This document shows, one piece after another, positions 19,816 to 56,173 of a stretch of 64,000 bases of DNA. The DNA is taken from NCBI GenBank assembly GCA_965140785.1, contig OZ223519.1, forward strand, positions 192,001-256,000, in the 5' to 3' direction. A program made the position numbers and the translations under genes. A model generated the notes under the pieces. The model saw only the letters and a list, made by a program, of their open reading frames with translations. It was not told the origin of the DNA and did not search any database. The DNA is from an uncultured Ruficoccus sp. (lineage in GTDB: Bacteria; Verrucomicrobiota; Verrucomicrobiia; Opitutales; Cerasicoccaceae). The stretch's first letter is position 1. Each line of letters begins with the position of its first letter.

Positions 19816-21684
19816 TCACTTCTCCGTCGGCACGACGATGCCGCGAAGGATGATCTTTTGCGCGAAGATAAAGACCAGCAGTGGCGGGATCGCGGCCAGC
19901 AGGACCGAGGCGTAAACCCCGCCGCTGGAGACCGTCTCGCGGTACTGGTACATCCACACCGGCAGCAACCACATGTCCTGCTCCGGTGCCACGATGATCG
20001 CGAACAGAAACAGCGTGTAGGCGGCGTTGAACGCACTCAGCGCCACCACGGCCAGGATGGGCTTGCTCAGCGCCATCGTGAGGGTGAAAAACATCCGAGC
20101 CTCCGAGGCGCCCTCGATCTGAGCGGCCTCGTAGAGTTCGCGCGGCAGCGAGTCGAAGAAGCCCTTGAGCAAAAAGATGAGGTAGCCATTGGCCACGGTC
20201 GGCAGCAGCAGCCCGGCGAAGGTGTTCATCAGGCTGAGCTTTTGCAGCATGAGAAAGACCGGGATCGTTGTGACCATCGGCGGGAAGGCCATCACCGCCA
20301 TCATCAGGAGCAGCACCTTGTAGCTGCCCGGCAGTTGAAAGCGCGAGAGCGCATAGGCGGCCAGCGGGTTGATCAATACGGCGACCAGCACCGAGAGTGC
20401 GCAGAAGATGACCGTGTTCCACAACACGCGCCCCTCCAGTGCGATGGCATCGATTACGTTGACGAAGTTGCGCGTGGCGAACTGCCAGCGTAGCGCCCCG
20501 GCGTGTTCGTGGGCGTACAGGGCCTCCAGGTCGGCCAGCGGAAGCCAGCTGTATCCAAAATCCGGATACGATTCGCCATACGCCAGCGAAAGACTCTCGG
20601 GCGTACCGTACTTGTCATTGAGCCAGTCGGCCCAGGCGTACTCCGGGCCGGTCAGCGTCCAGCGCTCCGGCCCCACCGTGCGCAGGAACTCCCCGTAGTC
20701 GAGTCGCTCCGCGCCCGATAGGTACTCGCCTGCAGGCAGTGTTATCTCAATAAAATCACCGTAGCCCGTATCGCCCCACTCCTGGTTGAGCTTTCCAATC
20801 TCGCCGTCGTAGCGCTCGGAGAGGAAGCGCTGATACTCCGCCGCGTCCACGCCCTCCAGTGAAACGAAGGATGGGTTCAGCTCCTCCCCGACGAATGCCA
20901 CCCAGGCCGCCCGAAAGTCCGCCTGTTCCACCGGTGGCACACGCCGGGGCAGACGGAACTCGTGCCAGTCTTTCAGGTTCAGCCCGAGCGCGGTGTTGGT
21001 CTTTTCGAGTGTACCGAATTCCGGATACGCGACCTGCGTGAGGAACGCGCCCGAGAGCGAGACCAGGCGGCGTTCGCCCGGCGGCGACTCGCGCAGGAGC
21101 CGGGCGTATTCCTGGTTGAGCGCGTTATCGGGGAAGTCGTAGCGGTTCGAGAGCCACTCGGGAAAGGGCAGGGAGACCTGCGTCCAACTCGTGATGGCCG
21201 CTCCCGTCTCGCGGGCGAACGCCTCCACCTCGCCGTCGAAGCGTGTCTGTACACGCTGGCGCAGTGTGCGCAGGTTGAGCGGGATGGTCAGCATGCCCGA
21301 GGTTCCGGCCAGCCCCTGCCAATGCAGCGGTAAATCGCTTGTCTCGATGAACTCCCGCAGGTCGCGGGCGGCGGTCGCGTTGAGCGACGGCAGCCCGGCC
21401 TGCGCAAAGGCGTAGGCGTGGCTCAGGTGCGCGGCGTTGAGCTCGCCGATGCGCTGCTCGTATTTGTATTCGAGAAATTTCCGCGTGAGCGCATCTTCAC
21501 TGACGAAGTAGCCGGGCACCAGCCCCAGTTCGTTTTCGTCTATCTCACTGCGAAACGACCCCGACACGAGCAGCAGCAGCGGGTAGAGCATCGTCACCGC
21601 CCCCAATGTGAGCAGCACGAAGGTCGCCGCATGGAAAATGCGCCCGGCGGCGGACTTGGATTCGACTGGCGTAAAGATCGGCAT
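19816..21684 (-). CDS. Carbohydrate ABC permease (MalG-like) with a large extracytoplasmic insertion
   Basis: TM1, then a ~340-aa insert, then NTVIF...AAYALSRF and the EAA loop FFDSLPRELYEAAQIEGAS. Confidence 0.9.
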   Translation of the reverse strand: MPIFTPVESKSAAGRIFHAATFVLLTLGAVTMLYPLLLLVSGSFRSEIDENELGLVPGYFVSEDALTRKFLEYKYEQRIGELNAAHLSHAYAFAQAGLPSLNATAARDLREFIETSDLPLHWQGLAGTSGMLTIPLNLRTLRQRVQTRFDGEVEAFARETGAAITSWTQVSLPFPEWLSNRYDFPDNALNQEYARLLRESPPGERRLVSLSGAFLTQVAYPEFGTLEKTNTALGLNLKDWHEFRLPRRVPPVEQADFRAAWVAFVGEELNPSFVSLEGVDAAEYQRFLSERYDGEIGKLNQEWGDTGYGDFIEITLPAGEYLSGAERLDYGEFLRTVGPERWTLTGPEYAWADWLNDKYGTPESLSLAYGESYPDFGYSWLPLADLEALYAHEHAGALRWQFATRNFVNVIDAIALEGRVLWNTVIFCALSVLVAVLINPLAAYALSRFQLPGSYKVLLLMMAVMAFPPMVTTIPVFLMLQKLSLMNTFAGLLLPTVANGYLIFLLKGFFDSLPRELYEAAQIEGASEARMFFTLTMALSKPILAVVALSAFNAAYTLFLFAIIVAPEQDMWLLPVWMYQYRETVSSGGVYASVLLAAIPPLLVFIFAQKIILRGIVVPTEK

Positions 21685-21688
21685 GGCG

Positions 21689-24505
21689 TCAGTTCCCCGT
21701 GCCCCCGGATTTGAATTCCGCGCGGGCCAGCAGGCGCATCTGGTAGGCCGTGAACCCGATCAGGATGCCGCCCATGATCCACGCCATGGCCGTGCCCACT
21801 CCATAGTCCAGGTCCATGAACGTGCGGTAAAAGATGGCCAGCGAGAGCGTGCGCGTGGCTTCGTTGGGACCGCCGCCGGTCATGACCAGGATCTGGTCGG
21901 CCCCGCCCTTGAAGGCTGCCACCAGCGCGGCGATCAGGTTGATCACGATGAGAAACTTCATCCGCGGCAGGGTGATGTAACAGACCTTGTGCCAGAAGTC
22001 CGCCCCGTCGATGGCGGCGGCTTCGTACAACTCGTCCGGGATGCTTTTCAGCCCGGCCAGGTAAATGATGCAGCCCGGTCCGCTCGCTGCCCAGACCGAA
22101 GGGATGATGATGCAGAGCATGGCCATGTCCGGGTCCTGCAGCCAGCGCTGCGGCTCGATCTGGAAACGCCCGGCCAGGCTGCCCAGCACCGCTGCCGCCT
22201 CTCCCCATCCGCCCGCTTGCGCCGCTTGCACGAGCGGGGCCAGCGTCAGCACCGCGAAGCCCAGCCCGACGGCCCACAGGCACAGCTTCAGACCGAGGGG
22301 CATTTCGCTCAGCTTGAAGGGCAGGCCCAGCAGCAGCGCGAGCAGCCCCAGCCAGCAGGCCAGCAGCAGGCCCTTAATCAGCGTGGCCGGGACGGAGCCG
22401 AGCTGGTTGAGCGAAAGCAGGAGCTGGTTGAGCGTACCCGAGGGTGCCGGGTCGTACATCTGCAACCACAGGAACATGACCACGATCCCGACCAGCACCG
22501 AGGGCAGGTAAAAGACCGTGCGGAAAAAGTACTTCGCGAAAGTCGTCGGCACCTCCTGCAGCAGGATGGCCAGCAGGATGGGGGGCCAGAAGCCCAGCCC
22601 GATCATCAGCGCGACGAAGTAAAACTCCCGCCATAGCGCGTCCCAGAAGCGTGGGTCGTAGAGGATGGTGGCGAAGTTGTCCACGCCCACCCAGCGGCTG
22701 GGCAGTACCAGCTCGTAGTCCATGAATGTCAGGGTGGCCCCGCCCAGAATGAGCGGCAGGTACTGCCACAGCAGAATGAGCACAAAGGCCGGGAGCAGCA
22801 GCGCCCAGCCACGCAGCAGGTTACGCCGGTGGCTCTGGCGGCTCAGATCGAGCGACGGACCGGTTTGGCCAAAGCTCCGCCACACCGCCCCGATGCCAAA
22901 GGCGAAGGCCGCGCCCAGCACCGCGAGCACGCCCCCGGCCACGAACCGCCGTTCGCGCATTTCCTCCGGGGGAATTTGCCCGAGAGCGCGGGCGTTGACG
23001 TCGGCTTCGGCGGCTTGGAGCAGGGCTAAAATATTGGCCCGCGCTTCCTCCGGGGACATATTTTGGTAATCGCGTTCAAGTGCCTGGTTGATCGGCTGTG
23101 AGAGCATGCGATAGATGAACTGCGTGCCGCGCCCGTAGGGCTCCGGGACGCCCCCCTCGAGCGCTTCGCGGTAGGTGGCCTTCCAGCCGGGCGGCACACG
23201 GGCCAGCAGCCGTTCGTAGCCGAATTTCTCCAGGAGGTCGGGATTGACGAAGGCCCCGTAGCCACGATCGACAAAGATCTGCGTGCGCAACTGCCGGGCC
23301 TCGTCGCCGGTGACAAACCACAGGTAGCGCATGGCGGCGAGCTGCTGGGCCGGGCTGCTCTCACTGAAGACCCCGAGCATGCGGGCGTTGAGCAGGCTGC
23401 CGCGCTGGCCGTCCGGCCCGGCGGGCAGGGGAGCGATGCCGACCAGTTGCGGGTTGATCGCGGCCAGCATTTGGTCATCGAGCGAGCCGAAGCTCATACT
23501 GACCTGCCCGCGTTTCCAGAGGTTGCTAAAGTCTGGCCGCAGGACCGCTGCCCCTTGGAGGGTCACACCGTCGCGGGTGTAGGGCTCGCGCAGCAGCCGC
23601 CAGAAGTACAGCACCCCCTCGGCCGCGCCGGGCGTGGCGAAGGTGGCCCGCCACTGACCGCTCTTATCCGGTTCCATGGCGCGGGTGCCGTCATTGACCA
23701 GAAACTGGTAGGCCTGGTAGCTGATGCCGTCGCCGGGGCTGAAGGCGAGCGCGTAGCGACGGCGGGCGGGATCGTGCAGTTGCCGGGCGTAGGCCAGGAG
23801 TTCTTCCCAGGTCTGCGGCGGGCGGTTGGGATCGAGCCCGGCGGCCTGAAAGTGGTCCTTGCGGTAAAAGAGCGCCCGCACCAGCGTCGAGGTCGGCAGC
23901 GTCCAGACGTGCTTGCCGCTGAAGCGTCCGCTCAGGTCCTCGCGGTAAACGACCGGCCAGGCCCGCTCGGGCACGCGCTGGCGGATCAGCTCCAGGGCGG
24001 CGGCAGTTGCCTCGGCACTCGGGTCGGCTCGCCAGCGGCCTTGGGCATCGGTTTGGCGGACGGCGGGGTCGTCGCTCAAGACCCGGGCCAGGAGCGTTTC
24101 CAGCGGCAGGAGAAAGCCGTGCTCATTGTAAGTGGCCGACTGGCGGAAGTTGACGTAGATGGCGTTCGCGCCCATTCCGGCGGCGATAGCCATGAGCGAG
24201 CCCGAGTCGCGCGCGTCGTCGATCCCGATCGCGGGCATGGCAAAGGATTGGATACGCACGTCCGGATTTTTATCCAGAAAGGCGCGGACGACTTCCCGCT
24301 TGGCCAGCGCGTCGATGGTGACCTCGCCGGGCTGGGGCAGGTTTTCCACCACGATCGTGACGGGGGGCGCGGGTTCGTCCGATGCGGGAGCAGGACCGCT
24401 CGCCCCCACCGCCGTCAGACCGGCCAAAGCCCCGGTCAAACCAGCCGCCAGCCCACGCAGCCGTCGAAAAAGCGGAAGCCGGTGAGAGGTGCGAAGGGCG
24501 GGCAT
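21689..24505 (-). CDS. Sugar-binding protein fused to a MalF-like ABC permease
   Basis: SBP-like motifs ALFYRKDHFQAAGLDPNRPPQTWEELLAYARQL and GIAPLPAGPDG; C-terminal WVGVDNF, FFRTVFYLPSV, YLAGLKSIPDELYEAAAIDGA, MTGGGPN. Confidence 0.88.
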   Translation of the reverse strand: MPALRTSHRLPLFRRLRGLAAGLTGALAGLTAVGASGPAPASDEPAPPVTIVVENLPQPGEVTIDALAKREVVRAFLDKNPDVRIQSFAMPAIGIDDARDSGSLMAIAAGMGANAIYVNFRQSATYNEHGFLLPLETLLARVLSDDPAVRQTDAQGRWRADPSAEATAAALELIRQRVPERAWPVVYREDLSGRFSGKHVWTLPTSTLVRALFYRKDHFQAAGLDPNRPPQTWEELLAYARQLHDPARRRYALAFSPGDGISYQAYQFLVNDGTRAMEPDKSGQWRATFATPGAAEGVLYFWRLLREPYTRDGVTLQGAAVLRPDFSNLWKRGQVSMSFGSLDDQMLAAINPQLVGIAPLPAGPDGQRGSLLNARMLGVFSESSPAQQLAAMRYLWFVTGDEARQLRTQIFVDRGYGAFVNPDLLEKFGYERLLARVPPGWKATYREALEGGVPEPYGRGTQFIYRMLSQPINQALERDYQNMSPEEARANILALLQAAEADVNARALGQIPPEEMRERRFVAGGVLAVLGAAFAFGIGAVWRSFGQTGPSLDLSRQSHRRNLLRGWALLLPAFVLILLWQYLPLILGGATLTFMDYELVLPSRWVGVDNFATILYDPRFWDALWREFYFVALMIGLGFWPPILLAILLQEVPTTFAKYFFRTVFYLPSVLVGIVVMFLWLQMYDPAPSGTLNQLLLSLNQLGSVPATLIKGLLLACWLGLLALLLGLPFKLSEMPLGLKLCLWAVGLGFAVLTLAPLVQAAQAGGWGEAAAVLGSLAGRFQIEPQRWLQDPDMAMLCIIIPSVWAASGPGCIIYLAGLKSIPDELYEAAAIDGADFWHKVCYITLPRMKFLIVINLIAALVAAFKGGADQILVMTGGGPNEATRTLSLAIFYRTFMDLDYGVGTAMAWIMGGILIGFTAYQMRLLARAEFKSGGTGN

Positions 24506-24703
24506 GAAGGGGAGTTTGGAATATCCGGGCGGGCGGGTAAATCTTGTTATTGCGTCAGCCTCGTGCTTCACCCGGGAATCCGCGGGAACCGCGCAGATTT
24601 AAACCTGTCGTAAGGGATGCTTATTCTTTGTTCTTTGTCTATGAAGGTTGTTGATGGATTGGGCGGCCGAGGGTAGACTCAAGAGGTACTGGAGGTTGAA
24701 GTT

Positions 24704-26300: not shown

Positions 26301-27653
26301 ATGGCAGATGAAGTTTACCTTAAGCCACCAACCGTAAAACGCGCCAGACGCGCTCAAAAGCGTTCGCGTATCGCCATGGTGTCCACCCATGGGTATGTGG
26401 CCGCCGAACCGCCGCTGGGCTTGCCCGACACCGGCGGTCAGGTCGTGTATGTGCTGGAGCTGGCAAAGAAGCTCGCTCAGCTCGGCTACGAGGTCGATAT
26501 CTGGACGCGCCGCTTCGAGGACCAGCGCGAAGTCGAAAAGGTGGACGACCATGTGCGCATCCTGCGCATGTGCTGCGGCGGCAAGGAGTTCATCCCGAAG
26601 GAATACCTTTACAAGAAGCTGCCGGAGTGGACCGAGAACGCGCTGCGCTACATCCAGAAGAAGAACTACAAGTACGAGTTTATCAATTCCCACTACTGGG
26701 ACGCCGGGCTCGCCGGGCAGCACATGGCCGAGGAGCTGAATGTGCCGCACATCCACACGCCGCACTCGATCGGTACCTGGAAGCAGCGCCTGATGCGCGA
26801 GGACTCCACGGACGATGACGCGCGGCTGGAGGAGGTTTATAACTTTTCACGCCGCATCCATCACGAGTCCACGCTCTACCGCGAGTGCGACATGGTGGTG
26901 GCGACCTCGCCCATCCAGCTCGATATGTTCAAGGCCGACTACGGCCTGCCCGCCGACAAGGTGAAGATGATCCCCCCCGGCTACGACGACAACCGCTTCT
27001 TCCCCGTGAGCGAGGCCAGCCGCATCTCCATTCGCGAGTCCCTCCAGTACGACCCGGACGTCAAAGTCGTCGCCTCCATCGGTCGCCTGGCCCGCAACAA
27101 AGGCTTCGACCTGCTGGTGGACGCCTTCGCGGTGGTCGCTAAACACACGGACAATGTCGTCCTGCGCCTGGCCGTGGGAACCGAGACCGAGCAGACGATG
27201 GAGGACCCGATGCTCAAGGAATTGATCGACAAGATCAAGGGGCATGGTATCCAGGAGCGCGTCATCCTCAGCGGCTCACTCGAGGACCCGGATATGCCCG
27301 ACTTTTACCGGGCCGCCGATGTGTTCTGCCTGCCCAGCCGCTACGAGCCCTTTGGCATGACCGCGATTGAAGCCATGGCCTGCGGCACGCCTACCGTTGT
27401 GACAACCCACGGCGGGCTTTTCCGTACGCTGACTTATGGAATCGACGCGCTCTACGCTGACAGTTTCGACGCCGGGGATTTTGGTTATACGATTCTCAAG
27501 GCGCTGCGCCATCCGGCCATCCACAACCGTCTGGCCTCTAGCGGTGCGCACAAGGTGCGGAGCCTGTTCACCTGGACGGGGATCGCGCAGCAGTTGCTGA
27601 AAATCGTCGAGGGCCGGCACATCCCGCGCCTGGAAGTTACTGAAGCGGGTTGA
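26301..27653 (+). CDS. mfpsA: GT4 sucrose-phosphate-synthase-like glycosyltransferase, most like mannosylfructose-phosphate synthase
   Basis: RIAMVSTHGYVAAEPPLG.PDTGGQVVYVLELA, TRRFEDQ, CGGKEFIPKEYL, FINSHYWDAG, HTPHS, PSRYEPFGMTAIEAMACG. Resembles Agrobacterium MfpsA as recalled; not database-checked. Confidence 0.8.
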   Translation: MADEVYLKPPTVKRARRAQKRSRIAMVSTHGYVAAEPPLGLPDTGGQVVYVLELAKKLAQLGYEVDIWTRRFEDQREVEKVDDHVRILRMCCGGKEFIPKEYLYKKLPEWTENALRYIQKKNYKYEFINSHYWDAGLAGQHMAEELNVPHIHTPHSIGTWKQRLMREDSTDDDARLEEVYNFSRRIHHESTLYRECDMVVATSPIQLDMFKADYGLPADKVKMIPPGYDDNRFFPVSEASRISIRESLQYDPDVKVVASIGRLARNKGFDLLVDAFAVVAKHTDNVVLRLAVGTETEQTMEDPMLKELIDKIKGHGIQERVILSGSLEDPDMPDFYRAADVFCLPSRYEPFGMTAIEAMACGTPTVVTTHGGLFRTLTYGIDALYADSFDAGDFGYTILKALRHPAIHNRLASSGAHKVRSLFTWTGIAQQLLKIVEGRHIPRLEVTEAG

Positions 27654-27743
27654 TCCTCGCCCGATCTTGTCCATAGTTGCGCGTGACCGGTGCGGATGCG
27701 GTCTTGCGTCAGCCGGTTTACGTCACATTCGTTACATCGATTC

Positions 27744-29828
27744 ATGGCTGCACAAAACGATAAGCAAACACCGCCGTTCCGGGTTTTCTGTTCGGATATT
27801 GACGGCACGTTGCTGGGCAAGGCGGACGCCGCGCTCGCCTTCGCTCACACTTGGGAGTCGATCCCGAAAAAGAAGCGCCCCCTGCTGGTGTATAATACCG
27901 GGCGCCTGCTCGACGATGTGCAGCGGCTGATCAAGAAGAAGCGCCTGCCGATTCCGGACTACTGCATCTGCGGCGTGGGCACGGTGATCTACGACTTCAA
28001 GAAGACCGAGTGCATCAAGGCCTTCTCGGTCGTGCTGGAGGAGGGCTGGGACCTGGGCCGGGTGGAGGAAATCGTGCGCGAGTGTATGCCCGCTGCCGGC
28101 CGCCAGCCTGAGCGTTTTCAGACGCCTTTCAAGTCCAGTTGGTACGCCAGTTGTGAAGACAAGGAGCTGGACCACCTCGAGGAGCGCCTCAACGAGGACG
28201 GGCTCTCGACCAACGTCGTGTACTCCAGTGGGCGCGATCTGGACGTGCTGCCCAAGTTCGCGGACAAGGGCAACGCCCTGTCCTGGCTGCTCAAGTTTCT
28301 CAAGATTCCGCGTGAGAAGTGCCTCGTCGCCGGGGACACCGGCAACGACAACGCCATGTTCCTCAAGCGCGGCGTGCGCGGGATCGTCGTCAGCAACGCC
28401 CAGCCGGAGCTGCTGGAGCGCATGCTGGGCCGCGACGAAATCTACCGTGCCGAGGGGTCCTGTGGCGACGGTGTGCTCGAGGGCCTGATCCACTACGGCG
28501 TGATCGACAAGATCGTCGAGGGCGAGCCGGAGGAAGCGCTCAGCCACGTTCCCGAGATTCAGCACTTGATCGAGGAGGAGCACACCAGCCCCCTGAGTGA
28601 GCGCGACATGGACTTTATCCGCGAGGGTTACGAGCGCGCTATCGACGGGATCCGCCGCAACATCACGCCGAAGGGCTTCTCGGCCTGTTCGCTGGAGGAC
28701 AACAACACCCGCGGCACGGATGCCAACTATCGCAGTGTCTGGGCGCGCGACGGCGCGGTCACCATCGTCGGGACGATTGAGCTGGACGACCCGGACATCC
28801 GCGCCTGCCAGCGGGCCACGCTCGAAACGCTCATTGCCTGCATGACGCCGACCGGCCAGATCCCGGCCAATGTCAGTCTCGACACGGGCGAGCCGGATTA
28901 CTCCGGGGTGGGGGGCATCTGCTCCATCGACAGCGGCCTGTGGGTGATCATTGCTTTTGCCGAGTACATCCGGGCGACGCAGGACTTTGACTTTCTGCGC
29001 AGCCACATCGGCGCGCTGCAAAAGGCGATGGACTGGCTCAGTGCCCACGACAGCAACAACGACGCCCTCCTGGAAATTCCCGAGGCCGGGGACTGGACGG
29101 ACCTCTTTGGCCGCAGCTACCATGTGCTCATCGACGAGGTGCTGTGGTTCCGCTCCAATATCGCCTTCGGGCGGCTGATGGAGTACCTGGGCGAGTGGAA
29201 ACGGGCCGGGGACTACCTGCGCTGGGCCGGCTCGATCAAGAAGAAGATTTTTCGCGAATTCTGGCCCTCGGTCAAATCCGCGGGCGACCTCAACTACACT
29301 TTCGCCGACTCGCAGGCCTCGATGGGCGATACCAGCTACCTGCTGGCGCAGATCACGCCCTTCGACCATGACTGGCGCTGCGACATCTACGGCAACGCAC
29401 TGGCGTTTCTGTTCAACGTGATCGACCATGAGCACGCGCAGATCGCCTTCCGCTTCATGTGGGGCTCGGGTGTGAACGAACCCTTCCCGGTGAAAAACCT
29501 CTACCCGCCGGTCGAGTCGGGCGACCCGAACTGGAAGCGCTACTACACGGTCAACCTGCTCAACTTGCCCCAGCACTACCATAACGGCGGCATCTGGCCG
29601 CTGGTCGGTGGCGTCTGGGTACGCTTCCTCAACCGCCTCGGCCTGCGCGAGCTGGCCTGTGAGCAGTTGGTCAAGCTGGCCGAGTTGAACCACGCGGGCG
29701 CCTTTTACGAGTGGGAGTTCAACGAGTGGGCGCACGGCACCACGGGCAAGCCGATGGGCAAGGCCTTCCAGGCCTGGTCGTGCAGCGAGTACATCGCCGC
29801 CTGCCACGAGATAGGCCTCTTCGATTGA
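27744..29828 (+). CDS. Fusion of a HAD-IIB sucrose/mannosylfructose-phosphate phosphatase and a GH100 invertase-like hydrolase
   Basis: N-terminal FCSDIDGTL, YNTGR, DLDVLPKFADKGNAL, VAGDTGND; C-terminal NYRSVWARDG, IDSGLWVII, YHNGGIWP, FQAWS. Confidence 0.85.
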   Translation: MAAQNDKQTPPFRVFCSDIDGTLLGKADAALAFAHTWESIPKKKRPLLVYNTGRLLDDVQRLIKKKRLPIPDYCICGVGTVIYDFKKTECIKAFSVVLEEGWDLGRVEEIVRECMPAAGRQPERFQTPFKSSWYASCEDKELDHLEERLNEDGLSTNVVYSSGRDLDVLPKFADKGNALSWLLKFLKIPREKCLVAGDTGNDNAMFLKRGVRGIVVSNAQPELLERMLGRDEIYRAEGSCGDGVLEGLIHYGVIDKIVEGEPEEALSHVPEIQHLIEEEHTSPLSERDMDFIREGYERAIDGIRRNITPKGFSACSLEDNNTRGTDANYRSVWARDGAVTIVGTIELDDPDIRACQRATLETLIACMTPTGQIPANVSLDTGEPDYSGVGGICSIDSGLWVIIAFAEYIRATQDFDFLRSHIGALQKAMDWLSAHDSNNDALLEIPEAGDWTDLFGRSYHVLIDEVLWFRSNIAFGRLMEYLGEWKRAGDYLRWAGSIKKKIFREFWPSVKSAGDLNYTFADSQASMGDTSYLLAQITPFDHDWRCDIYGNALAFLFNVIDHEHAQIAFRFMWGSGVNEPFPVKNLYPPVESGDPNWKRYYTVNLLNLPQHYHNGGIWPLVGGVWVRFLNRLGLRELACEQLVKLAELNHAGAFYEWEFNEWAHGTTGKPMGKAFQAWSCSEYIAACHEIGLFD

Positions 29829-43212: not shown

Positions 43213-44085
43213 CTAGCGACGGGCGCGGAAGCGGCGGCGCAGGAAGGGAATTATGGCCGTCGTGCCAATGAGCAGCAGCAGGGCACTCGAGGAAGGCTCG
43301 GGGACGATCGTCAGGCCACTGACCGAGTACGACCAGGTTTCGTTCGGGCTGTCGTCTTTATTCATCAGTGTATTGAACATGACATGCTGGCTGACATTGG
43401 TCCCGCTGCGGAACTCCAGATTATCGTCACTGGTGAAATTGCCTTCGGTCGAAGTGATCGAGGCACCCCAGCGACGGGCTGCGGAGTCAATCGTGATGTC
43501 GAAGGTATAGACACCCGATTCAACGAAATTGAGACCGGTGTTGATCGACGAATTACCCGACACATCTCCATTTCTCAGGGAGATGGCACTGCTGCTACTG
43601 ATGAGGATACCCCAGGTCTGGGAAGAGCTGCTGGTTGTACCGGTGATGGCGCCTTGAGAGCCAAAAAAACCGATAAAATCATTACTACCGAAGCCGTCCA
43701 GACTGTCGGCCCGGATGGTGAACGAGATCGTATAAACCGAGGGCAGTTCACCGACATCGTAGCCGCGGTTGATTGAACTGCGGTGTTGCTTTACAACGGC
43801 ATTTGAAGTAATCGTAGCCTGCAGGTAGTTGTTGCTGCCAACAATCGGGTTGGCATTGGTGACGGTCGGCGTGAGCGTGGCTTCCTCCGCGTAAGTCTCC
43901 CAAGCCGTCGTCCAGCCGCCCCCGCTGGTGCCGACGAACTGGGTGGAGGGGTTGGAGGTGCCTTCGCCGCCGGAAAAGTCCGCCACGATGTCAGCGTGGA
44001 GGTATGCCGAGCCCATCAGGGTCAGACCAGTTAGGGGCAAGAGGCGGAGCATTCGTGCGAGAGAGAGTTTTTTGTGGGTAAGCAT
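43213..44085 (-). CDS. PEP-CTERM surface protein (Ser/Thr/Gly-rich, beta-sandwich-like)
   Basis: Signal peptide; C-terminus IVPEPSSSALLLLIGTTAIIPFLRRRFRARR. Confidence 0.92.
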   Translation of the reverse strand: MLTHKKLSLARMLRLLPLTGLTLMGSAYLHADIVADFSGGEGTSNPSTQFVGTSGGGWTTAWETYAEEATLTPTVTNANPIVGSNNYLQATITSNAVVKQHRSSINRGYDVGELPSVYTISFTIRADSLDGFGSNDFIGFFGSQGAITGTTSSSSQTWGILISSSSAISLRNGDVSGNSSINTGLNFVESGVYTFDITIDSAARRWGASITSTEGNFTSDDNLEFRSGTNVSQHVMFNTLMNKDDSPNETWSYSVSGLTIVPEPSSSALLLLIGTTAIIPFLRRRFRARR

Positions 44086-49507: not shown

Positions 49508-50254
49508 TTAGGTGCCGGGTATTCCGCGAGGAGCCGTTTCTCGTTTCTGCACGACTTGGTAGTACTTGCGGATACTTGGGGTGGCTCCTGCCTCTCCGTA
49601 TATAAAGACCCAGGCCCGGCGTTGCTTGGGAGAAGCCCAGCGGGACTGGTAGATCATGTTCCATTCGCTGTTGCGGGCATTGGAGGCCATCTGGACATCG
49701 ACGTTCTTTGTGTCAACGTCGGCGAGGGAGACGATGTGATTACGACCGGGCGCGACCTGGAACTTTTCATCGCCCACCCGGATCGCCATCGCGGCCCCGG
49801 TGAGATTGTAGAAGTTAAAGGCATTGGCCGTAAACCCGGACCCGGCATCGGGCAGGGCGAGAATCTTATAGGCCTGCTGCGCTCCGCTGGTGGAAGGCAG
49901 GAAGACCAGCAATAGCCGTTTGACGTTGCGGGGGATGGTGACGGAAGTCTGGAGATCGTAGAGGATTTCGCCTTCCGGGCCGGTACGCTGGGTGTAGAAG
50001 CCCATTTCCGGGGAGCCGCGATAGGTCAGTTCATGACCGGGAGCGCCGTTGGGGATAAAGAGCGAGACGGGCTTGCCTCCATCGAAGTAGAGCAGGTCCT
50101 GAATCGAGCCCTGCCAGGAGAGCGCGTAAAAGGAGACGGAGACGGGCTCCTCTTCCTGCTGGGCATGGGCGAACGGCGTGAGGCTCGCGAGCAGACCAAG
50201 GCTCAGTAGGGCTCTGCGTGCCAGGAGAGAGGGGAGTGAAGTCGTCAGGCTCAT
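49508..50254 (-). CDS. Exported hypothetical protein, partner of the upstream pilin-like gene
   Basis: Signal peptide ending PFAHA-QQ; beta-rich mature region; starts 25 bp after the upstream stop. Confidence 0.78.
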   Translation of the reverse strand: MSLTTSLPSLLARRALLSLGLLASLTPFAHAQQEEEPVSVSFYALSWQGSIQDLLYFDGGKPVSLFIPNGAPGHELTYRGSPEMGFYTQRTGPEGEILYDLQTSVTIPRNVKRLLLVFLPSTSGAQQAYKILALPDAGSGFTANAFNFYNLTGAAMAIRVGDEKFQVAPGRNHIVSLADVDTKNVDVQMASNARNSEWNMIYQSRWASPKQRRAWVFIYGEAGATPSIRKYYQVVQKRETAPRGIPGT

Positions 50255-50279
50255 AGGAAATCGAGAGGGCGTTGGGGGG

Positions 50280-53200
50280 TTAAACATCATCCTCGTGCAG
50301 CCAACGGAAAGAGACGATACGGAATTGACGACCAAAATTCGTGGGCGGCGTGCTAAGCTGAGCCCGTGTAGGGTCGGTGTCGTTGGGCATGACCGGGTCG
50401 GGGACGCGCTGGACGATTGCCTCGCACCAGGCGCGGGCCACCACATGGTCGGTCAGCGGATCGACGCAGTCGCCGTAGGCGCGGATGCGGAAAGTATCCG
50501 AGCGCACGCTCATGAGCGGCCCGAGGACTTGAAGCACGTCCCCTTGCAGAATCCAGCCGGGCATCCCGGTGCCGGGTTTATCCGTGGGGCTGAACACATT
50601 TGCATAAGAATCGGGGATTTTCAGGCTTGTGCCGCTGACCGTGCCGACCAGACCGTTACTAAGAGGGTTGTTGACAGTGGTGTCGAGCGCGGCCTGAAGC
50701 GGGCCGCGGCGCTGCTGGTCCGGGTCGCTGGAGCCGGGCCGGCGGTTGACAAAATCTCCGAGTGAGGAAAAGGGGCCGCGCGTGCGCACTTCTTGAACCA
50801 CGGCGGTTGCCAGCGCCGTCAACTCGTTGTCATTGAGTTTACGGTAGGCGTTCCAGAAGTTCTGTCCGGTTCCGGTGGTGGTGAAGCCATTATTGTAGGG
50901 AAGCGGCGTGCGGAAGAAGATCGCTTCGGTGGCTTCCTCCGCGTTATTGGAGGTGCCCGTCGCGGGGTTGTAAATGGGAACGTCCAGATGGGAGTTGCTG
51001 GCCAGGAAGGCCTTCCAGGCTTCGACCGAGGTGGAGTTCACATTGAAGGAACCTTCGGTCAACTGGAAGGCGGCGGCGACTTCGGCGGTGTCGTCGACGG
51101 TGTCATCAGTCAGGAGCTCGGCCAGGTCGCTGGTGTCGAGTTGGTACCCATCGGGCTCATAGAGGGAGAGGTGCGGATTGGGAAGGGCATTGGTCTTGGA
51201 CTTGATCTCGCCGATCAGATCCTCAGCATCGTCAGGGTCCTGCGGCACAGTGGAGAAGTAGTAGCTATCCCAGATTTCATTGTTGAGCACGTACGACCAG
51301 TCGTAAGCATAATGCGAACGGGTGCTGCTCTCGTCGTAGTTGTGTTGGATGCTGTTGGCGGGGATTTTGGAGAAGATATAGCTGTTGCCGAAAATGTACG
51401 CGGGCTCATGCGCGTACCGACCAAGACCGGCGTGCTGGAAGCTCCCCACGGAGATCAGGGGTTCGCGGGGTACGTGAAAGAGCACGACGGATGTCGCCGG
51501 ATCAGCCATACCGCCACTGACACTTGAATCCCGGGTATTTCCCCAGAAACTGGTATAGCGATCGAAGTTCGCAACTTGCGGCTCCAGGGCTTCGCCGGGT
51601 CCGTATTCGTGCATCGTCCAGCCGGGGATGGTCGCCAATCCTTTATTTCCCCGGAAGGCAGCCTGCTTGCCCGAGTTCATGATCGCCCGGGGGTTGGCTT
51701 CGATTAACTGGCGCTGCGGAGCATCCGTTTGTTCGGTTGTTCGAAGGCTGAAGCTCAGCGCGGCAAGGTCGTGAGCGGAAGCAGTCAGTGTGCTCAGGAA
51801 GTAGGAACTCGGTTGGCTTTTGGGGCGGAGGGTCGAGGAGAACTCCTGATAATAGCCATCCATGATCTGGCTGGTAATGTACTTGTGGTTGTCTCTGCCC
51901 GTCTGCTCAGAAAAATAACCATAAGGCATTCGGGATTTTTCATCGCTGTTATTGGCAGGCTCGTAACTGATTTCGACGGAAATTTCAGGGTCTACGGTAT
52001 CATCTTCTTCCAGAATGATGGTGAGCCGGTTCAATTCATCCTGAGTAAAGCCAAAGCGGTCGCTTTTTTCCTCTGAAGGGACATTTTTTCGCTCGGTATC
52101 CGAAGAATACTTGCAAACGGTTCTGCCCTCCACGCTGGCCCTGTGTATAAACGGGTCCGATGACTGCTTATCCCAGGCGCCTCCTGGACTCGTCATGGAG
52201 GCGTTCACCAGATTGACATAGTAGGCGCCATTTTCATTCCAATTCGCTTCCATTTGGGCGAATTTATCATTAGTGGTTAAATTGGTAAGTATGTAGGGCT
52301 CGTCCAGCGCGTAGTAGCGTGTCTCACCGGGACGCAGATCGGTGTTTTGGCTGATGCGCCAGCGGAACATGGAGCCGGTGGTGTCATCTTCGGGAAGAAC
52401 CTCATGCATGCTGAACTCGACCGAATCTCTCTTGCCATCTTTATCGGTGATCGTGATTTCGATCTTGGGCATGAAGTACCAATTAAAATTGTAAACCTCG
52501 TTGTTCAGTGTGATGTCATAGGGGTTGTACAGGGCGATCAGCGGCTTGAAAAACATGACCGGCTTGTAGACGGCCGTTTTTATCGTGTTGTCCTCATTAT
52601 AGACGCTGTCATCCGGATCCAGCTCATAGCCAAGTGCAATGGCTATCCGGAACATGGAGGTGACGGCGTGAACGGGCTGGTTATATTGATATTGCTCGTC
52701 CTCATCGTGGTAAGTAGAAACGATGGCGGATTTGGAGCCGACATAGGCGGGGAGCGGTGTGGTCACCGGGATGGAGCCGTTGCTAACGTCGTTATACAGA
52801 CGATAGTAAGAGGCGAGAATGCCCCAGTTGGGAGCGCCATAGGGGAAGTCATAGTCATCGTCCACATGGAACGTATAGGGGACGGGCCAGGAGTTACCCG
52901 GATTTTCTTCCGTTGTTGGCGATGCGGTCGGGCCGATGCCGAAGTATGCCTCGAAGGCCCGGTCGCTCTCCAGCAGGTGGGTGAGGTCTTTTTTCAGGCC
53001 GCCGTTTTTGACGTCGGCCTGGACGCCGCGGCCAAAAATTGAAAGGTCGTGGAAGTAACGCTGGTCCAGCCCTTCGGTTACGTCGGCGAGGTTGTCCAAC
53101 TCGCTCAGGGCGGTGAGTTTGGCCAGGGTGGCATTGCTGGGGAGCAGATCGCCGAAGCCGGTGTCCACCGCGGTGAAGCCGGTATAGCGCGGCGCCATCA

Positions 53201-53822
53201 GGTCCGGATCGGTGGCGGCGACATCCGCCGGGACGGAGAGGTTGACGCGTGCCTTGGTGTTTTCTTCGCCGGTCCAGTAGGCATAGTGGCCGGTGTCATT
53301 GACGCTCACCTTGCCGGCGGCGATAAAGTTCGAGTTGGGCGTACCCAGGTCATCGACGGTGCCTTCGCCCACCAGTTGGACCCAATCGGCACCCAGGGTC
53401 ACGTCTCCCTGGCTTTGGGCGACCGTGTTATTCATCCCCTCGGGCAGGGAAACCAGCCAGCCCTTGAAGTCGGCGTCCGTGGCGCCGCCGGTGGAGCCGG
53501 ATTGCCAGACGCCGGTCCAGTATTCCTTATAGGGAGCGGCGGTGGGGTCGATGTTGGCCGGGGCGGTGATGCGCTGGTCCGGGCCGGCCAGCTTCTGGAG
53601 TTGACCGAGCGCGACCTTCAAGCCCATGAGAGCGTTTTGTTCGGCCTCGGCCTGGTCATGGCTGATCTGGGTCGTCGCCGTTTCCATGCGGATGAGGGTG
53701 CTCAGGCTGATCAGCATGAGCATGAGAAAGGCCATCAGCGTCAGTGACAGGACCAGGGCGAAACCCGCTTTTGCCTGGTTCTTGCCGGCAGGCGGGCGAT
53801 TCTTGGAGAAACAACAAGGCAT
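50280..53822 (-). CDS. Giant GspK/PilX-like prepilin-type protein (Verru_Chthon cassette protein A-like)
   Basis: Basic leader then G|FALVLSLTLMAFLMLMLISL (no Glu at +5); AEQNALMGLKVALGQLQKLAGPDQRITA; C-terminal RGPFSSLGDFVNR, LQGDVLQVLGPLMSVRSDTFRIRAYG, AWCEAIVQR, FGRQFRIVSFRWL. Confidence 0.8.
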   Translation of the reverse strand: MPCCFSKNRPPAGKNQAKAGFALVLSLTLMAFLMLMLISLSTLIRMETATTQISHDQAEAEQNALMGLKVALGQLQKLAGPDQRITAPANIDPTAAPYKEYWTGVWQSGSTGGATDADFKGWLVSLPEGMNNTVAQSQGDVTLGADWVQLVGEGTVDDLGTPNSNFIAAGKVSVNDTGHYAYWTGEENTKARVNLSVPADVAATDPDLMAPRYTGFTAVDTGFGDLLPSNATLAKLTALSELDNLADVTEGLDQRYFHDLSIFGRGVQADVKNGGLKKDLTHLLESDRAFEAYFGIGPTASPTTEENPGNSWPVPYTFHVDDDYDFPYGAPNWGILASYYRLYNDVSNGSIPVTTPLPAYVGSKSAIVSTYHDEDEQYQYNQPVHAVTSMFRIAIALGYELDPDDSVYNEDNTIKTAVYKPVMFFKPLIALYNPYDITLNNEVYNFNWYFMPKIEITITDKDGKRDSVEFSMHEVLPEDDTTGSMFRWRISQNTDLRPGETRYYALDEPYILTNLTTNDKFAQMEANWNENGAYYVNLVNASMTSPGGAWDKQSSDPFIHRASVEGRTVCKYSSDTERKNVPSEEKSDRFGFTQDELNRLTIILEEDDTVDPEISVEISYEPANNSDEKSRMPYGYFSEQTGRDNHKYITSQIMDGYYQEFSSTLRPKSQPSSYFLSTLTASAHDLAALSFSLRTTEQTDAPQRQLIEANPRAIMNSGKQAAFRGNKGLATIPGWTMHEYGPGEALEPQVANFDRYTSFWGNTRDSSVSGGMADPATSVVLFHVPREPLISVGSFQHAGLGRYAHEPAYIFGNSYIFSKIPANSIQHNYDESSTRSHYAYDWSYVLNNEIWDSYYFSTVPQDPDDAEDLIGEIKSKTNALPNPHLSLYEPDGYQLDTSDLAELLTDDTVDDTAEVAAAFQLTEGSFNVNSTSVEAWKAFLASNSHLDVPIYNPATGTSNNAEEATEAIFFRTPLPYNNGFTTTGTGQNFWNAYRKLNDNELTALATAVVQEVRTRGPFSSLGDFVNRRPGSSDPDQQRRGPLQAALDTTVNNPLSNGLVGTVSGTSLKIPDSYANVFSPTDKPGTGMPGWILQGDVLQVLGPLMSVRSDTFRIRAYGDCVDPLTDHVVARAWCEAIVQRVPDPVMPNDTDPTRAQLSTPPTNFGRQFRIVSFRWLHEDDV

Positions 53823-53912
53823 GATAATATGAGCCGGGTAAGGGCTAGGGGGGTATGTTTCTATGTTCTTAAATCGGAGTTGTCTTGTCAGGGCTTAAGG
53901 ATTGCTTCTAGA

Positions 53913-53935
53913 TGATATCATTTTCACAAGATTGA
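53913..53935 (-). promoter_or_regulatory. Partial copy E of the shared operator, upstream of the pilin-like gene
   Basis: Minus strand TCAATCTTGTGAAAATGATATCA versus copy A TCAAAATAGTGAAAGATATATCA. Confidence 0.5.
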
Positions 53936-54098
53936 TCCTGGCTGGCTGATCCAGACGAAAGCAACGATGAGAAGGGTAAGGCTCAGGCCGGCCTGGGACA
54001 GCGATGGCAGTTTGGTGGACAGCTCGTAGATTAAGATGTATCCATTCTGTCCTTTACTCCCCGGAAGTTCAAATTTCCATTAGTTCAAACATTTGAGC

Positions 54099-55112
54099 AT
54101 GAAGCGGCGAGTGACCTTAAAACAGATTGCCGAGCGGGCCGGGGTTCACCTTTCCACGGTCTCGATGGCCTTGCGAAATCATCCCCGGATCTCGCAGCAG
54201 ATGCGCACGAAGCTTCAGAAGCTGGCGCAGGAGATGGGCTATGTGCCTGACCCTTCCATGAGCGCGCTGTGCTCTTACCGCAATGCCATCCGCCCGATGG
54301 CGGTGCGCAGTGGATTGGCCTACCTGACGGACATGGACCCGGAGCGGCCCTTTGAGGTTGAGATCTTTGAAAACGCCCGTCGCCGGGCGGCGGAGCTTGG
54401 CTACAACCTGATCGAGTACAACCTGAGCCGCAATTATATGAGCCTGGAGCGCCTGCATTCGATCTGGTGGAACCAGGGCTTGCGGGGCGTTCTCGTCGGT
54501 CCGTTCCGCGGGCAGACCAGCCTGCACGGGACATGGGAACGCTGGCCGGTGGTGGCCGTCGGCTATTCGGTGGAGGAGCCAAGTTTCAACCGCGCCACTG
54601 CCCACCATTTCCAGAATACCCTCTCACACCTGGAGGAACTGCACGCGCGGGCTTACCGTCGGGTGGGCTTGTGTCTGCCGGTTTCGCTGGATGAGCGAAC
54701 GGGCGGACAAATGCACGGGGCCTACCTGCTCGATGCAGAAAAAAACGGCCTCAAGCGCGTGCCCCCGCTTTTTACCCAATGGCCGGTAGACCCCGCGGTT
54801 ATGGACGAATGGGTGCGGCGTCACAAACTGGAGGCGGTCATCGGACATCCCGACCACTACCAGGCGCTCCTGGCGGCGGGATGGGAAGTCCCGCAGCAGA
54901 TCGGTTTTTCCCTGCTGACGATTCTCCATGACGTTCCGGGCTGTGAAGGGCTGGCGGGGTTCGATGCGAAGCCCGGGCAAGTCAGCGTCAACTCGATCGA
55001 TTTTCTCGTTTCGCTTATTCACGAGCAGGCCTGCGGCCTGCTGAGCCCGCCGCGCTTCTATCTGGTCTCGGGAGTTTTTCGCGAGGGTTTTACCGTTCGG
55101 CCCAAGCCGTGA
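54099..55112 (+). CDS. LacI family regulator
   Basis: VTLKQIAERAGVHLSTVSMALRNHPRIS...MGYVPDP. Confidence 0.93.
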   Translation: MKRRVTLKQIAERAGVHLSTVSMALRNHPRISQQMRTKLQKLAQEMGYVPDPSMSALCSYRNAIRPMAVRSGLAYLTDMDPERPFEVEIFENARRRAAELGYNLIEYNLSRNYMSLERLHSIWWNQGLRGVLVGPFRGQTSLHGTWERWPVVAVGYSVEEPSFNRATAHHFQNTLSHLEELHARAYRRVGLCLPVSLDERTGGQMHGAYLLDAEKNGLKRVPPLFTQWPVDPAVMDEWVRRHKLEAVIGHPDHYQALLAAGWEVPQQIGFSLLTILHDVPGCEGLAGFDAKPGQVSVNSIDFLVSLIHEQACGLLSPPRFYLVSGVFREGFTVRPKP

Positions 55113-55318: not shown

Positions 55319-56173
55319 ATGAATCGATTATTCCGCATCCTCTCCCGTCATATTCTCCTGCTGTCTCTGGCCGGTTCGACTTCCTGGGCGGCGACCGACG
55401 TTCTGCTTTCGGAAACCTTTCCTGCCGACAAGCGGCTTGATCAGGACCTGCCCGACACGGCTGCCTGGTACAATAGTTCGAACAGCGGCATCAGCTACAG
55501 CACTGGCAACTTGTCCTCGACGAGCAATCGTTTTTACATGGCTTATTTTACAGATTCGGGCACGGTTGATCTGGCCGTTGGTGAGTCGTTGAGCATTAGT
55601 TTCAGCCTGGCACTGGACACCCCGGACACCAATTACGGTGGCCTGCGCATCGGTATTTTCAATTCAGGTGGCAACCGCATCAGCAGCGACGGCGCCGGGC
55701 TGAATAATCCGCTTTACGATGACTACGTCGGTTACGCATCGATGATGAATGTCAACGCGGGGTCGGCCATGAAGTTTTCCGAACGTAACGCCAATCTGTC
55801 GGAGGCCCTCATTCATAGCGGCACTGCCTACACCTCTTTCAACGAGAAAGGTCTGGGCGATGGAGCCACCTTCACCAGTGGGCAATTTTACGAGGCGGTT
55901 TTCACGCTGACGCGTACGGCCAGCGGTGTCGAAATGTCTGTGGCGATCAGCGGACTTGAGGGCTACTCGGCGACTTATACCGATACGACGAGCGCATTTA
56001 CGTCATTTGACAACTTTGTCATCTACGGGTCCACGAACGCGATGGACGGATATTCCTTGAGCGAGGTTGAAATAACTTATAACTCCATTCCGGAGGCGTC
56101 GACGTCCGGGCTGCTTGTGCTGGCGATCTTCTTACCGCTGCTCGCGCGCTTCCTGCGTCACCGGAGGAACTGA
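55319..56173 (+). CDS. PEP-CTERM-type surface protein (PEA variant)
   Basis: Signal peptide ending TSWA; Ser/Thr-rich; C-terminus SIPEASTSGLLVLAIFLPLLARFLRHRRN. Confidence 0.88.
   Translation: MNRLFRILSRHILLLSLAGSTSWAATDVLLSETFPADKRLDQDLPDTAAWYNSSNSGISYSTGNLSSTSNRFYMAYFTDSGTVDLAVGESLSISFSLALDTPDTNYGGLRIGIFNSGGNRISSDGAGLNNPLYDDYVGYASMMNVNAGSAMKFSERNANLSEALIHSGTAYTSFNEKGLGDGATFTSGQFYEAVFTLTRTASGVEMSVAISGLEGYSATYTDTTSAFTSFDNFVIYGSTNAMDGYSLSEVEITYNSIPEASTSGLLVLAIFLPLLARFLRHRRN

Follow-up and report, generated by a model that had tools for sequence, protein, structure and literature searches.

The tip of type IVa pili combines a GspK/PilX-class cap pilin with a non-pilin protein, exported by Sec, that is seated on top of it (PilX/PilW/PilV/FimU with PilY1), while in Thermus thermophilus the tip pilin ComZ captures a polymer, DNA, for uptake. 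Another described arrangement, the Verru_Chthon cassette, consists of a protein A together with the prepilin-type proteins B, C and D. The present work concerns a two-gene unit with partial likeness to each of these, found in a 64,000-nucleotide (nt) stretch of DNA from an uncultured Ruficoccus sp. (the window; positions 192001-256000 of contig OZ223519.1, assembly GCA_965140785.1). It specifies a giant protein of 1180 aa, predicted to have the fold of GspK, and an exported partner of 248 aa. What is new here is the fold, the partner with its predicted interface, and the genomic pattern, for a family that is without a Pfam or NCBIfam model.

The question to which this unit may be relevant is how Verrucomicrobiota and their relatives, which are without SusC/D-type transporters, gain periplasmic access to large polysaccharides, among them fucoidan, glycosaminoglycans, alginate and mucin. 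Pili have been implicated in mucin import by Akkermansia (10.1101/2024.03.27.586211; PMC13174399), so far the only case in which pili are genetically implicated in glycan import, and the MUL2 pili of Akkermansiaceae were proposed to attach to fucose-rich glycans (PMC13174399). According to the accessible text of a study of an Opitutales isolate (PMC13274419), a PulG-like pseudopilin is located in, and induced with, an alginate locus, Verruconatronum has 67 PulG-like prepilin genes of which one is induced on alginate, and the authors propose export of the alginate lyases of the isolate by a type II secretion system (T2SS). The proteins of MUL2 (amuc_1099-1102), MUL1 and the alginate locus resemble the unit described here in tying pilus-type proteins to glycan acquisition, but they are small pilins (archaeal-type or PulG-like) and PilM-like proteins, and the accessible parts of these sources (PMC13174399, 10.1101/2024.03.27.586211, PMC13274419) mention neither a GspK-like giant nor its partner.

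The giant and the partner are specified by adjacent genes, with the ATG of the partner (50254) lying 25 nt past the giant stop. The main features are as follows, in window coordinates and with the window strand given for each:

50280..53822, minus strand: giant GspK-class pseudopilin-like protein, 1180 aa (open reading frame (ORF), AlphaFold2 (AF2) model and structural matches)
53586..53822, minus strand: giant residues 1-79, with a short basic leader, a G/FALVL class III-like site without Glu5, and helix 21-79
51513..52244, minus strand: giant residues 527-770, hypervariable part of the insertion and predicted partner-binding surface
50283..51125, minus strand: giant residues 900-1180, C-terminal half of the GspK-like fold, conserved among paralogs, with a helical sub-domain (988-1103) and the terminal strands
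49508..50254, minus strand: exported partner, 248 aa, predicted tandem beta-sandwich (translation and AF2 model)

On a codon-usage score trained on long ORFs of the same genome, the giant reached 349.6 and the partner 58.9, and a competing opposite-strand ORF 13.0. An initial annotation of this DNA had described a class III-like signal without Glu5 and an exported protein of about 248 aa directly downstream. Both descriptions hold: the giant starts MPCCFSKNRPPAGKNQAKAG/FALVLSLTLMAF, with Leu at +5, and a Sec-type signal (..TPFAHA/QQEEE) opens the partner. The N-terminal motif G-[FYWMLIV]-[ASTG]-[LMIV] was present within the first 110 residues of 49/62 family members, none of which (0/49) had Glu at +5.

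From its predicted structure, the giant is a GspK-class cap pseudopilin with its fold split by an insertion. The AF2 model, for which a family alignment of 62 homologs was used, had a mean predicted local distance difference test (pLDDT) score of 90.2 and a predicted template modelling (pTM) score of 0.89, with a long N-terminal helix at residues 21-79. In an exhaustive structural alignment of this model against 48,161 chains, the best match was XcpX (5vtm_X; Z 11.4, root mean square deviation (rmsd) 3.0, 218/259 aligned), followed by GspK (3ci0_K; Z 11.3, rmsd 3.2, 241/280 aligned), both covering model residues 49-1180. The class assignment rests on the fact that these two stand far above all other chains, the next being ComZ (6qvi; Z 5.5, rmsd 3.8, 115 aligned). 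The GspK fold would be built from roughly 190 residues at the N-terminus and 280 at the C-terminus, separated by an insertion of about 700 residues; these boundaries follow secondary structure and the profile of conservation rather than coordinates. Within the insertion, residues 386-690 were modelled as beta-sandwiches, with weak structural matches. Among the 15 paralogs of this genome, column identity was 41-52% at both ends, the C-terminus being the most conserved part, and only 12-18%, with many gaps, across residues 500-750. The initial annotation had anticipated both the GspK-like identity, now borne out by the predicted fold, and the conserved C-terminus.

Compared with GspK and XcpX, the giant has the same hydrophobic N-terminal helix after Gly, without Glu5, and a like predicted fold, in which a helical sub-domain bears a helix-hairpin-helix-like motif. 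However, canonical GspK is a protein of around 300-380 aa, present in single copy in the gsp operon after gspH, I and J, and without a Sec-exported partner, whereas the giant is three to four times larger (1180 aa), carries the insertion, lies outside the gsp operon, is present in 15 copies, and is paired. The likeness to TIGR02600 (Verru_Chthon protein A) is that of a verrucomicrobial giant (about 1200-1300 aa) with a similar N-terminus, the match being confined to positions 1-59 of this 1296-position model and far below its cut-off of 332.3 bits. The present family can be regarded as a sister type of the Verru_Chthon cassette: B, C and D pilin genes were absent beside the giants in all but 1/88 cases from other species (among the matches listed), and the conserved partner gene is outside the cassette definition. 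As in PilX/PilY1 tip complexes, a cap pilin is combined with an exported non-pilin, and FimU was a weak structural match (Z 3.5), but the sizes are reversed, the pilin being the giant and the non-pilin small, and there was no PilY1-like or PilX_N match. ComZ is likewise a minor pilin with a large inserted domain; its match is weak, the inserted fold is a different one, and its context is DNA rather than glycan.

Profile searches reached the giant mainly at its N-terminus. No Pfam model matched it at E ≤0.1, including PilX_N and T2SSK, both raised by the initial annotation, and NF037980 gave no match at the same threshold. Among NCBIfam models, TIGR02600 alone was found, at 13.8 bits over residues 20-78, so that membership of that family, also raised earlier, did not hold. 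Extending the comparison to 11 giants, nine matched TIGR02600 with 13.8-35 bits, and six reached 16-25 bits with the NF037980 GspK model, compared with its cut-off of 130; a TIGR02600 scan of the whole genome gave eight weak N-terminal matches (20.9-39.1 bits), none above cut-off. An hhalign comparison with the GspK of the same genome aligned the N-terminal helix alone (probability 6%). Foldseek, with the whole 1180-residue model, returned no PDB match at E ≤0.001, and its best rows (E 0.01), beta-rich pore-forming proteins, were rejected as chance resemblances (TM-scores of 0.03-0.05). A helix-hairpin-helix stretch of DNA polymerase III alpha, at the top of the family profile search of PDB sequences, was discarded in the same way (E ≥2). 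A protein atlas search with giant residues 350-760 returned unnamed clusters from Verrucomicrobiota alone.

The family itself is large. A profile search of 1.84 billion representatives recovered 6089 proteins (50% identity clusters) at E ≤0.001 and 3782 at E ≤1e-30, mostly named 'hypothetical protein' in public databases, with a few automatic names such as PilX, PilV and PulG (some JGI family entries among them) or 'Verru_Chthon cassette protein A'. Within an incomplete coverage of the literature, no description of a giant GspK-like protein in Verrucomicrobiota was found, nor any mention of a 'Verru_Chthon cassette'.

Giant and partner form a strictly paired unit. The genome, assembled as 50 contigs totalling 4.36 Mb and 90.85% complete, encodes 15 full-length giants of 1035-1277 aa, 12 of which are directly followed by a called signal-peptide protein of 218-270 aa. 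Two more partners are intact though skipped by the gene caller, and one is frameshifted, so that 14/15 partners are intact; the initial annotation had proposed that such paralogous pairs be counted. A profile built from 12 partner orthologs found 11 of the called downstream proteins (E ≤1.5e-4) and nothing else below E 0.01, while a jackhmmer search from the partner in the window converged on exactly the 12 called downstream proteins among 3425. In its own proteome, the partner family is thus confined to positions downstream of giants. Beyond this genome, a survey of 80 loci from Verrucomicrobiota and Kiritimatiellota (595 relatives among at least 612 pattern matches) placed a partner directly downstream, on the same strand, in 82/88 giants with a C-terminus among the matches listed; one of the six giants without a partner had only 140 nt of contig left. 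A single-sequence search with the partner gave 12 relatives, the best of which adjoin giant orthologs, judging by locus tags, in the same metagenome-assembled genome (MAG).

The frameshifted partner (L037:11551-12361, on G000:C39, downstream of the giant at 150974-154474) is split into ORFs of 193 and 145 aa, by either a frameshift or an assembly error. Two remnants of further giants were also seen, one a C-terminal fragment of 152 aa whose upstream frames are broken (G000:C47:125458-128303), the other an N-terminal fragment within an open frame of 487 aa that starts 236 nt from the contig start (G000:C46:236-1357).

The partner matched nothing in Pfam or NCBIfam, and its paralogs share 14-24% identity. 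Its AF2 model (25-sequence alignment, pLDDT 88.7) shows two beta-sandwich domains, best matched by the two-lobed extracellular domain of PepT2 (5a9h; Z 12.7, rmsd 3.5, 168/189 aligned), while the C-terminal lobe resembles many small sandwiches, such as pneumolysin domain 4, the AlgF C-domain and transthyretin. Complex modelling, another proposal of the initial annotation, supports binding of the partner to the giant. With giant residues 190-900, partner residues 33-240 and alignments of our own, the interaction prediction score from aligned errors (ipSAE) was 0.86, 0.84 and 0.85, the best of three controls giving 0.00; the mark applied to this score was reached by 116/157 solved complexes and 2/215 mismatched pairs, counts that are approximate where own alignments are used. 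At least 82% of contacts were common to the runs, and the pLDDT of the partner was at least 85. The predicted interface involves giant residues 527-530, 611-615, 671-686 and 742-770, and partner residues 46-74 and 183-234. Since the giant-side residues fall in its least conserved region, the interface would lie on the hypervariable part, and such docking fits the high divergence among partners.

The window itself places the pair inside a polysaccharide locus, as the initial annotation had stated: its Pfam neighbours are GH3, a sulfatase, a heparinase II/III-like protein, GH88, an RraA-type aldolase, a 2-hydroxyacid dehydrogenase, two AraC regulators, a LacI regulator, BNR_4 and an MFS_2 transporter, with more sugar genes in the first half of the window. 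This setting recurs. Among 134 proteins encoded within 8 kb of the 14 other paralogs, Pfam identified glycoside hydrolases, lyases, sulfatases, carbohydrate esterases, carbohydrate-binding modules (CBMs) or sugar transporters at 13/14 loci, the remaining one, on a 16-kb contig, showing a split LacI gene alone. Carbohydrate-active enzymes (CAZymes), sulfatases or sugar transporters therefore accompany 14/15 giants of this genome. The zone within 10 kb of the giants makes up 7.5% of the genome, and holds 14 of the 55 LacI helix-turn-helix (HTH) matches (4.1 expected, binomial p 4e-5) and six of the 12 MFS_2 matches (0.9 expected, p 1e-4), with a LacI HTH gene near 13/15 giants. The association with CAZyme loci, an earlier proposal, is upheld by these enrichments and by the CAZymes around the pairs. 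For other species, 20 loci were chosen and 102/117 neighbouring proteins submitted to Pfam, 17 loci being covered on both sides. A hydrolase, sulfatase, carbohydrate esterase or sugar transporter was found within 3-4 genes of the giant at 12/17.

The machinery for a filament is encoded elsewhere in the genome, in agreement with the initial annotation, which had noted that neither pilins nor an assembly ATPase are near the pair. A regular expression applied to 3425 gene calls found no prepilin-motif gene inside 192001-256000, and no T2SSE ATPase is encoded on the contig of the window. Over the whole genome the same expression gave 60 matches, a few plainly false and six of them on contig C48; no prepilin-motif gene adjoins the giant in 14/15 loci, and in the other a 239-aa PulG-like gene lies about 4 kb away (L038:14355-15074). 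A T2SS operon on contig C40 encodes GspG, H, I, J and a 374-aa GspK (107.9 bits), then L, M, D, E and F, which were named by position and size, with Pfam matches for GspD and GspE. In total, the genome has four GspE/PilB-like and three PilT-like ATPases, one GspF/PilC-like protein, five secretins and, as prepilin peptidase, one Peptidase_A24 gene. The giants were also considered as the completing subunit of the canonical T2SS, a reading that was rejected because a 374-aa GspK is already encoded in that operon. Four ORFs before a secretin gene on contig C34 were considered as PilMNOP, from positional likeness, and were left unnamed as Pfam gave no match.

A candidate for the shared filament is an operon of five prepilin-type genes (G000:C18:67157-70753), two GspG-like and one each D/GspH-like, B/GspI-like and C/GspJ-like, with no K and no assembly genes beside it. 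These letters are best guesses, because the matches are below curated cut-offs and mostly N-terminal. The K-less operon is kept in four other genomes (L129-L132), as a set of five genes in two and of three in the remaining two, and genomes with a full-length match to its J-like protein have one copy of it (families f1, f2, f3, f8, f9, f35 and part of f11). The C-terminal domain of the giant (residues 900-1180 as query) occurs in 98/401 genomes of a phylum sample, with family counts that include f1 3/3, f3 24/26, f4 20/35, f8 6/6, f11 28/31 and f22 0/65. In a single MAG locus (L110), giant and partner come immediately after H-, I- and J-like genes, giving the order gspHIJK. Of the 88 other-species giants among the matches listed, this was the only one with three prepilin genes directly upstream, and 25/88, again among those listed, had a prepilin-motif ORF within 10 kb.

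Some 50 PulG-like prepilin genes (210-290 aa) are scattered through the genome, many of them near sugar loci.

Our tentative preference, for which we would claim somewhat less than an even chance, is that the pair is a locus-specific cap module for a shared T2SS/type IV pilus-like filament, capturing glycan for uptake. Capture for uptake is favoured because of the PilT-like ATPases, the precedent of ComZ, and the literature cited above on Akkermansia mucin import and the alginate-locus pseudopilin. The giant, a minor pseudopilin of the GspK class, would be anchored by its N-terminal helix with the prepilin-type site, and the Sec-exported partner would dock on the hypervariable part of the insertion in the periplasm, giving a two-protein head. 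One common filament set, comprising the K-less G-, G-, H-, I- and J-like operon, the GspE/PilB-like and PilT-like ATPases, secretins and the prepilin peptidase, would serve 15 alternative heads, most of them in sugar-regulated polysaccharide utilisation loci. On induction of a locus, its head would prime or cap the common filament and bind the cognate polysaccharide via its variable surface; the chain would next be drawn to the envelope, by filament retraction or a piston movement, and be degraded in the periplasm (a 'selfish' mode). Processing by prepilin peptidase, filament assembly, glycan binding and co-induction of the pair are steps we infer. The pair might hypothetically act 'in place of SusC/D', as the initial annotation put it.

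A number of observations weigh against this proposal. The enrichment tests treat genes as independent although the loci cluster, so that their significance is overstated, and the counts for the 17 other-species loci stand without a genome-wide baseline. Three of those 17 had no carbohydrate-related neighbour and two had sugar-type regulators or oxidoreductases alone; because some loci of other species lack carbohydrate neighbours, the association is broad, not universal. RNA data were sought for this genome and none were found. None of the 11 giants reached the cut-offs of the TIGR02600 and GspK models, neither protein of the pair matched a CBM or lectin family in Pfam, the beta-sandwiches of the insertion resemble known folds weakly (Z ≤4.5), and the predicted fold of the partner is generic and names no function. 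The score of the complex is a model confidence obtained with own alignments, not a measurement. The canonical T2SS on C40, with its own GspK, has no need of the giants, and the link between giants and the K-less operon from co-occurrence is suggestive at most, because related genomes share features and are not independent.

The best-surviving alternative, a possible but doubtful one, is that the cap sits on a pseudopilus that serves secretion, with the head recognising the exported enzymes of its own locus and escorting them through the secretin, as a substrate-specific piston adaptor of the T2SS. A role in contacting T2SS substrates is attributed to the GspK-I-J tip, and the closest folds to the giant are precisely T2SS caps (XcpX and GspK). 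The genome has a complete T2SS, the giant loci contain many hydrolases and sulfatases with signal peptides, and T2SS export has been proposed for alginate lyases in the Opitutales isolate, to go by the accessible text (PMC13274419). However, the T2SS operon already has its own GspK, three PilT-like retraction ATPases suit a retractile filament better than a piston, and a single head per locus would need to recognise several unrelated enzymes.

It is less likely that the giant never enters a filament, and that an inner-membrane-anchored giant and its partner bind imported oligosaccharides in the periplasm, then pass them to an MFS/SSF transporter or signal their presence. The strong enrichment of MFS_2 genes beside giants (6/12), the SSF transporters in other loci and the soluble, periplasmic-type nature of the partner would all suit this, as would the small share of giants with a prepilin-motif ORF within 10 kb (25/88 among the matches listed). 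Moreover, the approximately 50 scattered PulG-like genes here, and the 67 reported for Verruconatronum in the accessible text (PMC13274419), suggest that many 'pilins' of the phylum may not be filament subunits. What speaks for a filament is that the entire GspK fold, helical sub-domain and terminal strands included, is the best-conserved part of the giant, that the G/F site is conserved, and that L110 preserves the H-I-J-K order. In GspK, the helical sub-domain and terminal strands contact GspI and GspJ.

Large tip proteins of type IV pili, PilY1/PilC, are adhesins, and the variable domain and many paralogs would agree with a head that is the tip adhesin of a type IV-like pilus, attaching cells to polysaccharide particles or surfaces without uptake. 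Despite the proposed attachment of MUL2 pili to fucose-rich glycans (PMC13174399, accessible text), this is improbable, as the nearby sugar-type regulators, transporters and degradative enzymes suit nutrient acquisition better, although present data otherwise fit it as well as they fit glycan capture for uptake.

Returning to glycan capture for uptake, the giant-partner pairs may be how these bacteria handle each polysaccharide. A wider generalisation, in which Verrucomicrobiota and Kiritimatiellota, being without SusC/D, employ one retractile pseudopilus whose cap is swapped per substrate, with giant and partner as the glycan-specific head, is possible but must be considered doubtful. If true, such a swappable-cap pseudopilus would do for polysaccharides what DNA-uptake pili do for DNA, and would give these phyla a mechanism of 'selfish' uptake into the periplasm. 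The genomic logic combines many heads with a single K-less pilin operon and with loci under sugar regulation; taken with the fold and the partner, it allows the question to be put to a direct test in cultivable Opitutales. Should the heads prove glycan-specific, they could also serve as genomic markers of substrate range.

Two further features bear on the regulation of the pair:

53823..54092: intergenic region of 270 nt between the divergent giant and LacI genes, with presumed promoters and the 10-bp palindrome ATGATATCAT at 53912-53921
54093..55112, plus strand: LacI-family regulator (Pfam LacI HTH, 3.3e-12), divergent from the giant-partner pair and its candidate regulator

The initial annotation had wired the pair into a glycan regulon via the first 23 bp of a shared operator at 53913-53935, and this operator was not found. 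The 23-mer is unique in the window at up to three mismatches, none of its 10-mers recurs there on either strand, and its inner palindrome ATGATATCAT had two matches at up to two mismatches, with 14/100 shuffles giving as many. Promoter- and terminator-like sites in the region were at chance level.

Among the neighbours of the pair are two PEP-CTERM-like secreted proteins without a Pfam match, of 284 aa (55319-56173, plus strand) and 290 aa (43213-44085, minus strand), with ends reading ..IPEAST.. and ..VPEPSSS.., followed by a hydrophobic stretch and an Arg-rich tail. A regular expression for such ends found 83 proteins in the genome, 12 of them within 10 kb of giants (p 0.02), and 11/15 giants have one nearby; they may be surface glycan-binding proteins of the giant loci. 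Another giant pair adjoins a cluster (L039:63-7104; G000:C50:67862-74903) encoding a 1016-aa TPR protein, a 380-aa protein, ExbB, ExbD and a proline-rich 400-aa protein, which may be a counterpart of the Akkermansia 'periplasmic protein complex' locus.

Elsewhere in the window, a 960-aa fusion of SBP_bac_1 and BPD_transp_1 (21689-24571, minus strand) is followed by a 622-aa permease (19816-21684, minus strand), and a comparable long SBP/permease set adjoins another giant (locus L032). A GT4 sucrose-synthase-like glycosyltransferase and then a 712-aa sucrose-6-phosphate phosphatase/GH100 invertase-like fusion are encoded at 26301-29828 (plus strand).

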